A program made the translations under genes and the position numbers. The notes under the pieces were generated by a model. The model had not been told where the DNA came from. It ran no database searches and saw only the letters and a list, made by a program, of their open reading frames with translations. DNA of 62,864 bases, the filler included, from Choristocarpus tenellus KU-1152 (taxonomy: Eukaryota; Protista; Phaeophyceae): NCBI GenBank assembly GCA_964200185.2. It is 10 parts of 10 records of this genome, joined end to end, with 100 filler letters (N's around TTAATTAATTAA, not from the genome) between each part and the next. Parts side by side here need not be neighbours in the genome. Positions count along the whole stretch, not along the records: positions 1 to 2,584 come from CAXNAD020026547.1; positions 2,685 to 6,570 come from CAXNAD020017369.1; positions 6,671 to 11,893 come from CAXNAD020011454.1; positions 11,994 to 15,574 come from CAXNAD020019127.1; positions 15,675 to 20,627 come from CAXNAD020012403.1; 5 more parts are not named here. One strand, written 5' to 3'. The stretch's first letter is position 1; every line of letters starts with the position of its first letter. Below, piece by piece: positions 606 through 19,621 of the stretch.

Positions 606-782
606 TCTGAACAACTATGGGAAACTACACTAGACCATAATAAGCGCACGTTACTACAAGTAAAAGTTAGTGATATAGATGATACAGAAGAAATCATCTC
701 AACTCTAATGGGAGGAGTAGTAGAACCTAGACGTGATTTCATTAATACCAATGCACTAAACGTATCTAACTTAGATGTATAG
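606..782 (+). pseudogene. gyrB: Bacterial (Rickettsiales-like) DNA gyrase subunit B C-terminal fragment embedded in host DNA
   Basis: Translates [58 protein letters not shown], the GyrB C-terminus (QLWETTLD…RTLLQV…STLMG.VVEPRR.FI..NAL…NLDV). AT-rich, no intron, no 5' portion. Confidence 0.93.
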
Positions 783-1375
783 TCGTTTAATTTAAATTTG
801 GGACGGCGCGATAAGTAAATGCTGCTGTGCCACCCTACTCGCACTTTCTCATCACTTAACATAGTACTGAGTGTCACATGGGTACTTGCTTTTCCGTCGC
901 CTCTCAACAGAGAAGGTGCCGAGGGTAGACCCAGGGGGTAGAGTGGCCTCGGCGGCTCTCCTTGTCTCACCGTCGTAGTTCATGTAGCTGTGTAAGTCAA
1001 TCGTGTGTGTGCTCACAGAAAGTCTGCAAAAGGCGTTTAGAAGATGTCTGGAAGTCTTTTTTTTTTTCTCGGTATTGCCACACGGCCAAACTTAGGCAGT
1101 GATATACCCCGGACCAATTTGTTGCAGAGAGTTCAGCCAACCACTTCATTTTTGTCCGTTTTGAAGTTGTGACCTTCAAAATTGCGCCGTAGATGTTCCT
1201 CCGCGTTTTTTCCACTATTTGATCGAGACACAGCTCCCGTTCGCCGAAGCCTGGACATTTGTGGATACAAATCTTTATAAGCTCTTGTCATACACTTTCA
1301 TTTGATATGTATATATTGTTGTATAACTGTTACGGCGATGCAGTGAAAAAAACAAGATTGTCACAGAGGGCGAAG

Positions 1376-2340
1376 CTACTGGGACCATTTTACTATCTGA
1401 TAGGCGAACACGACTGGGTAACCTGGGGGGGAACAACATTCCCCGCACCTGCCCTGGAGGTCCACATCCTGGCAGCTCATGACACCAGGATCACAAGGAG
1501 GGCTCAACATGAGATCACACGCCTCCTGAATGGGATCCGTTTTGACTCCTTCCGGACACAACTAACCAGCCTACCAAGTGAAGTGCAACAGGGAAAGGAA
1601 AGTTTCTCGTTAGCCCTAGCGCACCACCGGAGGCAGTGTGGACAAGTGGCAAATACATGGGCCTCAACACAACCCCTGGAGCCGGCATGCCAGATCCCTC
1701 CCGCAGAGTTTAAACTCACTGCTAGCAGATCCCTAGGGAGGGAGGAAGCCCTATCGCAAACAGGTACCAGTGACTGGATGAAGGAGGCAAAATGTCGACA
1801 CCAGCCATGCCCATACCTGTCGCAGGGCAGGAGGCCAGATGCGACAACACACACCTACGGTGAAACGCCTAAACCAACTATGCAAGGGAATGGGCACCCC
1901 TTGCACTACGGATGATGGCAGCCCCTTCATGGTAGACAGGAATTTCCGCATGGATCTGGTCTTTCATGAAGGGGCACTTGTGGACGCCGGAACAGCCCCC
2001 GACCGGGACGAAGGCCTCCTGCTAGATGTTACATTCATCCACCAGCAATGGTGTAGCTGCTGCTTTAGCGAAGGCACGAAAGCGCCCCCACTACGAGGGC
2101 TCTTTTGTCCCTTGTAGTTATAACCTCAACACCTTTGCGGTGGAAAGGTTTGGGCACCTCGGCAAGCAAGCGGAACGTTTCCTGGATGAGCTGGCTACAC
2201 ATGCGATGGAGGAACTGGAGGCTATTGCAGGAAAGGGGCGATCAAATCCCGTCTACGTCAAATAGTCTCGGTAACAACGCAGGTGGCACTATCTAGACGT
2301 GTCATGCGTTTTAAGCTGGATTCACCAGGGAGATGGGCAA
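1376..2340 (+). mobile_element. Decayed 3' part of a non-LTR retrotransposon with restriction-like endonuclease (CRE/R2-type)
   Basis: Frameshifted reading HAHTCRRAGGQMRQHTPTVKRL…FRMDLVF…LLLDVTF…FAVERFGHLGKQAERFLDEL fits the zinc knuckle plus REL endonuclease end of such elements. Second copy near 11.1-11.8 kb. Confidence 0.7.
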
Positions 2341-2559
2341 GGAGGGTTTTGCTGGATTTTTGGGATGCTTCCCTAGCTCCTCACCCTGGAGTGCAGGAAT
2401 AGGTAGATTGGGGGTACAGGAAGGTAGCTGTACAACATAGTAGTGAAATAACAAATAGATCAGTGCTTTTCACATTTGTGACATATTTTACTTTTTTAGG
2501 GATTTTTCTGACATGTGAATAGTTTTTCCTTGGTTTTTCCCCTCACACATCTACAAAAT

Positions 2560-2584
2560 GACCTAAAGTATCTGGGAGGGGGGG
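2560..2584. mobile_element. MITE family A terminus truncated at contig end
   Basis: GACCTAAAGTATCTGGGAGGGGGGG matches the TIR of full copies. Confidence 0.65.
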
Positions 2585-2684
2585 NNNNNNNNNNNNNNNN
2601 NNNNNNNNNNNNNNNNNNNNNNNNNNNNTTAATTAATTAANNNNNNNNNNNNNNNNNNNNNNNNNNNNNNNNNNNNNNNNNNNN
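2585..2684. other. Artificial contig linker (N-run, TTAATTAATTAA, N-run); also at 6571-6670, 11894-11993, 15575-15674, 20628-20727, 35932-36031, 45848-45947, 50821-50920, 55563-55662
   Basis: Same 100-bp spacer with six-frame stop codons nine times. Confidence 0.98.
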
Positions 2685-17380: not shown

Positions 17381-18541
17381 ATGCATGGTCTACAGTTCAC
17401 CTTTTTTACATTAGTGTTTGCAAGACTGATGCCCATCGGTTTTTGTCGATCTACGATTCTCAACAACAATACAACAGAATTGGAAGAGGCTTTCAAGCAA
17501 CGCGATCGATCCATTTCCCATTCAAGCGTCAACCCTGAAGTCATTCGTAAGACAGTGTACAGCGATAAATTGCGCCTTGTGTTCTTCGCTGGCCTGGAGG
17601 GTACAGGTCATCATTATTGGCATCAAGCGAATAATTTGTGCTTGCGTAAGAAATGGTGCACCACTAAATGTGAACTATCACTTGCGCTATACCCTGGTTT
17701 AGCGACAGCGCCATCATTGGCTGAGTACGATGGTGCCATTGAAGAGCTTGAACACAGCCTGGATGACCTGAGAAGGTTAGAGCATGAGGTTGCAGTTGGA
17801 AATAGCTCAGAAAGCAATGGATTTGGGGGATTGATCATCCCAGTCAACGCAGCTCCCTGCCCCTCTTCAGGCATGATGTCGTATCCTAACTTCAATGGTG
17901 CAAATAAGGCTCTGCAGTACGTGAATATTATCCTCCTAGCGCAGATGAGCGAGGAGAAGGGAATTGATTTACGTATCGTCTACCTCCAGCGCCCTTCAGA
18001 AGATATTATCAGGTGGGAAGGTTAGTTTTGGAATCACTTCAGTAATTAGTCACTCCCTCTCGCTGAGTTGTCTCTTCCTCCTTCACCAAAAGGCCTTTTA
18101 CGCGAAGATAATAAGGGGTAGTGGGTCTTGAGGGTATCCCTTTCTGGTTATTTTGCTCAATATTTTCTTTGTTGAATGCTAAAAAGGTCAACATAATTGA
18201 CCTCACATTACTATTAGGGTAACCACCTTCCCTTGACTCCCTTGTCTCTGCTGTTCGACACTTGGTGTATGTGTCATCCTGCTATTTGCCTCGTAAGTTC
18301 TGATGCCAGGAGGGGTTTTGGTGGAAATTTAATGACTGAGTCCAGGACTCTTGGAGTAAATGCTAATGCCCTTTCTTACATGCTCTCCAACATTGACTCG
18401 GAATTCGTGGAGTGCTTTAATTTCGTCGTGACCGACGACCCCGAGGAATTCTCGAGGATTGCAGCTTTCATCTCCCCAAGCAAAGTCATTGCAGATGGGA
18501 TGACAGTGGTGCTTAATGCTTCATACCACCCACCCAGGTGA
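17381..18541 (+). CDS. Sulfotransferase-like P-loop protein with N-terminal hydrophobic segment; exons 17381-18012 and 18298-18541
   Basis: [22 protein letters not shown] signal/anchor; [16 protein letters not shown] resembles the 5'-PAPS-binding loop; [21 protein letters not shown] resembles the 3'-PB R…S motif. The GT-AG intron keeps frame (AG|T = Ser). 3' end uncertain. Confidence 0.7.
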
Positions 18542-18677
18542 GGAATCATGCGAATCTGATTCACGCAGGTCCTCCTGCAAGTCCAATGTTTACTACAACC
18601 TTTGTCCTGCACGATGGAAGCATGATGGAGTAGGATGTACAAAAATAATATTTCATATCCAGTTTCCGTCTACTACT

Positions 18678-18873
18678 TCCTGTGTTAGTGCAGGTATTGC
18701 ATCTCTTTGGGGACCTGCTCACGGAGGTGCAAATGAAGCAGTCATCAGAATGCTTGTAGAAATTAAATCAGTAGAAAATATTCCAAATTTTATTGAAAAA
18801 GCAAAGGATAAAAATGACCCATTCAGACTGATAGGTTTTGGTCATAGGGTATATAAAAACTATGATCCACGCG
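18678..18873 (+). pseudogene. gltA: Bacterial (Rickettsiales-like) type II citrate synthase internal fragment
   Basis: [65 protein letters not shown] carries the GPAHGGANE and [13 protein letters not shown] motifs; [11 protein letters not shown] is typical of alphaproteobacterial GltA. Truncated at both ends. Confidence 0.95.
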
Positions 18874-18874
18874 T

Positions 18875-19108
18875 ATAGATTTAGGAGTATTGCAGCTTAT
18901 TTATCGTTGGCACGGAGATCAGTTTACTAGTTTAGAAGAAATGCTCACCCCAGAGAATAATATTAATTATGCGGCTAGGTTGTTGAGGTCGCTGTATGAC
19001 CAACATGGAAATTGGCAAAAGGCTATTAGGCGCTATCATTCAGCTAATTTAAAATATAGTAAAAAATATTCGAGAAAGGTAGCCATGATTTGGTTGGAGA
19101 GGACCTAA
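18875..19108 (+). pseudogene. Bacterial lytic transglycosylase (SLT domain) C-terminal fragment
   Basis: [56 protein letters not shown] matches the D.G.MQ.N..WH…L.P..N..YAA..L…G.W..A…YHS pattern; the N-terminal catalytic Glu region is missing; AT-rich tail to about 19200. Confidence 0.85.
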
Positions 19109-19621
19109 AAAACACAATACAATTGATATTGTGTAATAATTATTATACAATAACTAATATAAAATATGAATTAAGGTACGCAAATATATTCGCGTGATTT
19201 CTTCTCACCTGCTGGATGTACCATTTATCGTGATATGAGGTTAGGGTTGAGCTCTAGAGTCCTTCAAGGGCACTTGCAATTACTCTTGATTCTTCAACAA
19301 GCTCTGCCTACTCTACTCTCACATCTTACGTTCCATGTACCACACTCCATCGCAATATACTCTAACTGTTGCTCCTTGAAAACCGTATGTACTTGAAGCG
19401 CTTCGTATTACAAATGGACCAAGTATGTTACTTGTTGGTTAGATAAATGATGGATGGATTTATCCATTTTCTTAGTTTCTTCCAAAAGTTGGGGGGGATC
19501 TTGTATCGACTGAGTGGAAAGCAACGGAAATTAGAACAATACCTTTTGACCTTTGGAAGTACCCTATCTTTGCCCTGGCCCATCAGTACTTGATTAGTAT
19601 TGCCCAATGCATCACTGCGCT

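Follow-up and report, generated by a model that had tools for sequence, protein, structure and literature searches.

Bacterial DNA in the window

The window, the whole stretch of DNA analysed here, is 62,864 nucleotides long and comes from the genome assembly of Choristocarpus tenellus KU-1152 (GCA_964200185.2); it joins 10 contigs of 2.6-15.2 kb each, with spacers between them, and holds 62,053 called bases. DNA derived from the bacterial family Rickettsiaceae lies on three of the ten (contigs 1, 5 and 9): the end of gyrB at locus 1, a piece of the citrate synthase gene gltA joined to the end of a lytic transglycosylase (SLT) gene at locus 2, and the DNA between the divergent genes pntA and lolA at locus 3. 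The pieces are listed below; G001, G060, G076 and similar names stand for Rickettsiaceae genomes, and the family-wide DNA comparisons were made over 130-131 such genomes.

606..782, plus strand: locus 1, the last 58 codons and the stop of a Rickettsiaceae gyrB (PF00986, E 8e-17)
18679..18873, plus strand: locus 2a, an internal 64-codon piece of a Rickettsiaceae gltA (PF00285, E 2e-27)
18874..19178, plus strand: locus 2b, the 3' end of SLT with AT-rich downstream DNA (PF01464, E 1e-5)
51146..51295, no strand assigned: locus 3a, DNA between the divergent genes pntA and lolA, plus the opening codons of each (93/92/86/82% DNA identity to G060/G001/G076/G065)
51314..51404, plus strand: locus 3b (probable), promoter-like DNA and the start of a Rickettsiaceae open reading frame, ORF (72% to G070)

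A first-pass annotation of this DNA had described the gyrB, gltA and SLT pieces as intronless, AT-rich and lying away from contig ends, at two separate loci. For all three pieces this description holds, but the contrast in composition is weak at locus 2: the pieces have a GC content of 35-38%, against 50% for contig 1, and contig 5 itself has only 40%. The recurrence also stands, with three loci in place of two, as the DNA at 51146-51295 had been overlooked.

The gyrB piece on contig 1 is intronless and mid-contig, and it has neither a start codon nor a frameshift. It is 97% identical in amino acids to a full-length GyrB (P0009), from which it differs by two Ala-to-Thr changes (A27T and A48T), and its DNA is 86%, 85% and 82% identical to G001, G060 and G076, respectively; 69 of 130 Rickettsiaceae genomes give a match. 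At locus 2, the gltA and SLT pieces, both intronless and mid-contig, meet without a spacer, with SLT in another frame; the coding part of SLT covers 18874-19108, including its stop at 19106-19108. The gltA piece is 94% identical in amino acids to protein P0147 and 84-85% identical in DNA to the same three genomes (G001 84%, G060 85%, G076 84%), with matches in 109 of 131. The SLT piece is 79% identical in amino acids to L125/L126, and 71% identical in DNA to G076 over 306 bases that include the downstream DNA, and 75% to G001. When the 28 genomes of the genus of G001, G060 and G076 are ranked for the SLT protein, G076 comes first and G001 second; the SLT search also returned two Rickettsiaceae metagenome-assembled genomes at 70% and 67%, plus two weak, short matches in other taxa. 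A target-site duplication was looked for at loci 1 and 2 and none was found.

The SLT piece corresponds to a paralog of the tra conjugation cluster and not to the core paralog (41-45%). Neighbours of this paralog are TraG_N and an ORF that we take to be TraD-like. In G076, gltA and a copy of SLT are 4.2 kb apart and on opposite strands, thus making one source region possible for locus 2, which may have arisen either from two fragments or from one stretch of the donor that was inverted and partly deleted. The same genome has, beside gltA, a relic of a tra cluster between two identical transposase ORFs (L081, 2439-8612). This relic contains ORFs of the SLT, HTH, Fic and PLD-nuclease kinds and a short stub resembling TraD.

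At locus 3, on contig 9, the names pntA and lolA come from Pfam matches on L087. Locus 3a finds a match in 22 of 130 Rickettsiaceae genomes, mostly a short one, and the ninth codon of its lolA is a stop (51271-51273), where four of four relatives have Gln. Locus 3b begins 18 bases after 3a and matches one genome of the 130 (G070, E 3.6e-10), scoring 60.8 bits versus a best of 42.8 among 200 composition-matched random queries; in 5 other genomes, the neighbourhood of the same gene lacks this DNA. Positions 51141 and 51331 carry copies of a 9-base repeat, a candidate target-site duplication, the second copy of which lies inside the 3b match.

On the other seven of the ten contigs, DNA searches against 5 genomes and against 28 genomes (10 candidates scored per genome) gave nothing convincing, and Pfam scans of 90 AT-rich and 87 GC-richer frames, together with Rfam, gave nothing bacterial. 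The Rfam scan found no rRNA piece in the window. Short matches of 24-49 bases (2884-2918, 37907, 43425, 44287, 57613-57670 and 62601-62626) were set aside, the one at 57613 being a T-rich run. The bacterial DNA amounts to about 830-920 of the called bases (1.3-1.5%), and three loci correspond to about 48 per Mb (Poisson range about 10-140). Because seven contigs are clean and one of them has a eukaryote-specific gene, a strict selection of the window for such pieces is disfavoured.

Donor lineage

Among all the Rickettsiaceae genomes compared, G001, G060 and G076 take the first three places for gyrB, gltA and locus 3a, and all three belong to one genus of 28 genomes. In protein trees, the gyrB and gltA pieces fall into clades with a support of 100 in the Shimodaira-Hasegawa-like approximate likelihood ratio test (17 and 19 rows), and these clades also hold the three genomes and partial proteins of the assembly from Ectocarpus sp. 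12 AP-2014. With the 174 gyrB columns alone, the same three genomes are nearest (path 0.32-0.61; next 1.11). Approximately unbiased (AU) tests rejected a grouping of gyrB with three other lineages (p 0.006, 0.012 and 0.008); the lineage of the Nemacystus symbiont is thus rejected as the gyrB donor (p-AU 0.006). The Rickettsiales origin proposed earlier is upheld by the family-wide DNA ranking and the protein trees, which narrow it to the Megaira group of the Rickettsiaceae.

Two sources bear on this group. MegNdeciBESST is a Megaira-group bacterium from Nemacystus decipiens (PMC10132079), and a preprint assigns the bacterium in the Ectocarpus sp. 12 data to Megaira-group Clade B, Ca. Penulousia/Megaera_A (bioRxiv 10.64898/2026.03.27.714854); our use of the Clade B label assumes that the Ectocarpus assembly proteins belong to the bacterium named there. 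The pieces likely derive from a single species that has yet to be sampled, or from a few closely related ones, within the clade of the Ectocarpus sp. 12-associated bacterium. By the lifestyle given in the same preprint, the donor lineage is obligately host-associated.

In their size, abrupt ends, two-fragment patchwork and intronic site, the pieces resemble nuclear insertions of mitochondrial and plastid DNA (NUMTs and NUPTs). However, the source here is bacterial, with 94-97% amino acid identity to full-length bacterial GyrB and GltA, and the best matches are Rickettsiaceae chromosomal genes and intergenic DNA, not the mitochondrial or plastid DNA expected of a NUMT or NUPT.

It could also be that the insertions are real and came from a non-heritable or indirect source: a transient infection, the symbiont of an epiphytic protist, particles of a gene-transfer agent, or passage through an organelle or giant-virus genome, possibly with several donors or times. 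In favour of this, a living donor has yet to be seen in this host, the match to the nearest genomes varies by locus (93%, 86%, 85% and 71-75%), the SLT paralog is part of a mobile tra cluster, and rickettsial DNA is reported from a fern mitogenome (PMC10027690). Yet at three unlinked loci the best matches come from one and the same small clade, and identity among the relatives varies by locus in a similar way (G001 and G060 are 96.5% identical at locus 3, 87.4% in gyrB and 91.5% in gltA). The proximity of gltA and SLT in G076 would allow one source region, and no organellar or viral flank was seen at the loci in Pfam and Rfam scans of the window. We regard such an indirect delivery as unlikely, but it deserves serious weight.

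Integration of locus 2 in a host intron

Four runs (X1-X4) of one study cover locus 2 as short-read contigs, whose depth is only a rough guide; X2 is considered to be RNA from its GT..AG joins alone. The host features around the insertion are as follows.

17381..18012, plus strand: exon of an uncharacterised host protein, upstream of locus 2; X2 joins it to the following exon
18298..18537, plus strand: host exon directly 5' of the insertion-bearing intron, with GT..AG joins in X2, matching residues 227-308 of protein P0005
18538..20095, plus strand: GT..AG host intron holding gltA and SLT, skipped by an X2 contig
20096..20297, plus strand: host exon 3' of the intron, at the start of which the X2 contig resumes; 3' end not fixed

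An X2 contig at depth 49.3 skips 285 and 1,558 bases, both with GT..AG ends, and pieces of the intron occur at depth 4.6-5.3; locus 2 thus sits in a 1,558-base intron that is removed from the transcript. The exons around it continue the Ascophyllum nodosum homolog P0005 in the expected frame. The first-pass annotation had rightly placed the pieces mid-contig but had missed that gltA and SLT lie within a host intron. A contig of X1, 1,737 bases long and without a single difference, starts at 18561, crosses the two bacterial pieces and ends within the following host exon, at a depth of 25.3 (adjacent host contigs, 13.1-21.9). Contigs of X3 cross the left junction (18561-18888) and the right junction (19004-19213), and a contig of X2 crosses the gltA/SLT join (18773-18973). 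The gltA change M51I is present in X1, X2 and X3. Run X4 (organism B) gave only 151-base pieces in the intron, at depth about 2, and was left out of the evidence; a loose match of 35 bases at high depth (18757-18791) was treated as chance. As the junctions of locus 2 are bridged at host-like depth, integration there, as claimed before, is real as far as contigs can show.

These contigs speak to a further concern, namely that the pieces are assembly chimeras in which co-sequenced Megaira-group reads were stitched into host contigs. Sequencing data from brown algae do contain Megaira-group bacteria, a kelp assembly is documented to include hybrid scaffolds (PMC5695246), decay of the pieces is slight, and loci 1 and 3 are known from the assembly alone. 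But locus 2 is bridged in three samples at host-like depth, in an intron that is spliced out, and the X1 bins 18632-18742 and 18854-19186 show the depth of a single contig, thus leaving no second contig at 85% or more. The stop in the ninth codon of lolA and the spacer-less gltA/SLT join would also be unexpected in a living chromosome. We hold chimeric assembly to be improbable; it is a minor rival, and transient or indirect delivery is the main one.

A paralog about 13% different has the same exon layout as the host gene of locus 2 (18298-18590 and 20036-20297). Its depth in X2 is about five-fold higher (241 versus 49), and its intron diverges after 18590; it is a candidate empty-site control. 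No paralog contig over the insertion was found among the run contigs, which cannot prove absence; this hints that the insertion is later than the duplication of the host gene.

Decay and age of the pieces

The first-pass annotation had read substitutions at conserved residues as neutral decay after integration. We counted these residues in 120 homologs, full-length or partial, for gyrB, in 120 for gltA, and at 15 loci for SLT. The argument is mostly mistaken. For gyrB it fails: the His of LDH occurs in 71 of 120, the Ile of IIST in 106 of 120, and the Gly of MGG in 18 of 120, including the nearest 7. In the other two genes the listed changes are private to the window: the Ile of RLIG in gltA occurs in 0/120 (Met in 120/120), and the Leu and Ile of LQLIY in SLT occur at 0/15 loci each. 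By position, the residues private to the window are V26 and I51 (Met51Ile) in gltA (0/120) and Leu6 and Ile9 in SLT (0/15 each).

A ratio of nonsynonymous to synonymous change (dN/dS) near 1, which had been put forward as a sign of pseudogenisation, is contradicted by the values against the three nearest genomes, 0.024-0.036 for gyrB and 0.032-0.041 for gltA. Among the three living relatives the ratio is 0-0.051, like the window values. Most of the divergence therefore arose in the living bacterium. Amino-acid-changing differences number 2-3 per 134 such sites in gyrB and 2-6 per 148 in gltA, and G/C-to-A/T changes are found at 11 of 130 sites versus 7 of 251 in the reverse direction (p 0.02). 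We infer that change after insertion is a few percent at most and that decay is slight; the insertions are thus likely young. All of the pieces are truncated.

A further rival is a functional horizontal transfer, with the pieces retained as exons or regulatory DNA. The frames of gyrB, gltA and SLT are open, and locus 3 places a divergent promoter region about 1.1 kb upstream of a host gene. However, locus 2 is spliced out of the transcript, lolA has a stop, and the pieces lack a start or most of the protein, none being complete; moreover, the low dN/dS is like that between living bacteria. A functional role is very improbable in our judgement. The host gene in question, at 52403-54800, is intron-split and acetyl-CoA hydrolase/transferase-like (PF02550).

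Host contigs

The host gene around locus 2 is 35% identical to the A. nodosum protein P0005 (the only named one of 5 matches). An Atlas search gave no usable host name; sulfotransferase for the exon at 17381..18012 is a weak lead only, with Atlas clusters scoring just 0.83-0.84. On another contig, exons with the eIF2A Pfam family lie at 36611-38641, presumably from eIF3b; the eight top matches of the exon tested are 75-86% identical, and a Discosporangium mesarthrocarpum protein, the one with a name out of 10 looked up, is 84% identical. Because of these matches to A. nodosum and D. mesarthrocarpum proteins, the genome carrying the pieces is likely brown-algal nuclear, or that of a close relative.

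Contigs 1, 5 and 9 have repeats in common with other host contigs of the window. A degenerate repeat is common to 1825-2202, about 1 kb downstream of the gyrB piece, and 11120-11823 (76-78% alike), with no Pfam match in the two frames scanned. A 119-base inverted repeat (89%) lies at two contig ends (6449-6566 and 15675-15793). A high-copy host repeat occurs at 19622-19869, in the same intron as locus 2, and on two other contigs (52944-53203 and 58015-58276), with a summed depth of up to about 7,800 in X1. A tRNA-like sequence at 57846-57908, barely over the Rfam threshold and not called by ARAGORN, is likely a degenerate copy.

Discussion

Bacterial identity, a donor clade, abrupt ends within genes, a join without a spacer, an intronic site and host-like depth at locus 2 are what was observed. 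Taking this together, we consider it highly probable that the window holds scraps of Megaira-group Rickettsiaceae DNA in a likely brown-algal nucleus, likely captured during break repair from an intracellular symbiont and likely without function. In NUMTs and Wolbachia transfers, cytoplasmic DNA is patched into chromosome breaks by end-joining. We propose the following course: bacteria would lyse in the host cytoplasm and free their DNA, and end-joining would fill a double-strand break with one or two fragments, each 90-300 bases long, giving two fragments at locus 2 and probably two at locus 3. Capture would take place in the cell lineage giving rise to offspring, and the insertions would last in introns or intergenic DNA, where splicing or position makes them harmless, and then drift. 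Most of the divergence from known genomes would have come earlier, in the living donor under purifying selection. Because three unlinked events point to one narrow clade, we infer that the bacterium was heritable.

Several observations weigh against this account. First, regarding integration, the contig-level support is for locus 2 only, and loci 1 and 3 are seen in the assembly alone; all four runs are short-read contigs from one study, and X1 is possibly the source of the window itself. Second, regarding the donor, the 174 gyrB columns give no starred branch uniting the window with the three nearest genomes, the window rows fill just 13-15% of the protein alignment columns, and the Ectocarpus proteins, being incomplete, have no overlap with the window pieces, so that the link is one of clade membership; the tie between bacterium and host is made without a live donor, a 16S gene or microscopy. 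Third, regarding decay, the bias of change toward A/T could be the bacterium's own, relative-rate tests give no significant excess on the window branch (p 0.125-1.0), and private residues occur in living gltA homologs too, with 23 of 120 having at least one and 1 of 120 having two.

Among known systems, the closest is Volvox carteri, for which Kawafune et al. (2015) described truncated rickettsial genes in the nucleus, confirmed by PCR (PMC4324946). The likeness extends to Rickettsiaceae symbiont DNA in an algal nucleus with host repeats nearby, a cut gene joined to one that is distant in the symbiont, few or no frameshifts and a likely lack of function (PMC4324946). That case is a single PCR-confirmed region of about 9 kb in a green alga (PMC4324946). 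The 62 kb examined here, from a likely brown alga, instead contain three separate, unlinked loci, each 0.15-0.5 kb long and one of them intronic, with contig-level support only. The ebo operon, common to Ca. Phycorickettsia and eustigmatophyte plastids (Yurchenko et al. 2018, PMC6092422), is likewise a case of genes passing between an ochrophyte alga and a symbiont of the Rickettsiaceae. It is, however, an old, intact, six-gene plastid operon (PMC6092422), whereas the pieces here are likely young and non-functional nuclear scraps. The Ectocarpus sp. 12 bacterium (Clade B/Ca. Penulousia) resembles the donor in that the gyrB and gltA pieces group with the proteins of that assembly. But the Megaira bacteria of Nemacystus and Ectocarpus are living ones, known from sequence data, and in the available parts of the two sources no host-integrated DNA is reported (PMC10132079; bioRxiv 10.64898/2026.03.27.714854).

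Nuclear transfers of Wolbachia in animals have likewise put Rickettsiales DNA, mostly decaying, into host chromosomes. They differ from the pieces here in donor family and host kingdom and often involve much larger segments. The literature searched yielded no account of Rickettsiales DNA integrated into the nuclear genome of a brown alga, most subscription papers and supplements lying outside that search. The phenomenon and its mechanism are known, from Volvox and the same bacterial group, and the host lineage is new. The novelty suggested by the first-pass annotation was overstated, considering what is reported of V. carteri (PMC4324946) and of Megaira bacteria in brown-algal data (PMC10132079; bioRxiv 10.64898/2026.03.27.714854).

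Megaira-group bacteria in brown algae are known from sequence data only, and such data can hardly tell them from contaminants or from the bacteria of a protist host. The presence of donor DNA within a host intron is physical evidence that bacterial DNA reached the cells that found new algae. Contamination filters and screens for horizontal gene transfer will mishandle such contigs. It is plausible to project a genome-wide load from three contigs of ten. More tentatively, and with somewhat less than even confidence, we suggest that young Megaira-group fragments are scattered through this genome by the hundreds or thousands, and that together they sample a heritable germ-line symbiont, both its chromosome and its conjugative element. 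If the density found here is genome-wide, the pieces could be used to date infections, reconstruct the host range in brown algae and measure the rate of transfer from symbiont to nucleus. If this holds true, a heritable symbiont may now be lost, and its scraps would form a datable record of Rickettsiaceae infection across the Phaeophyceae, with transfer rates like those of organelles.

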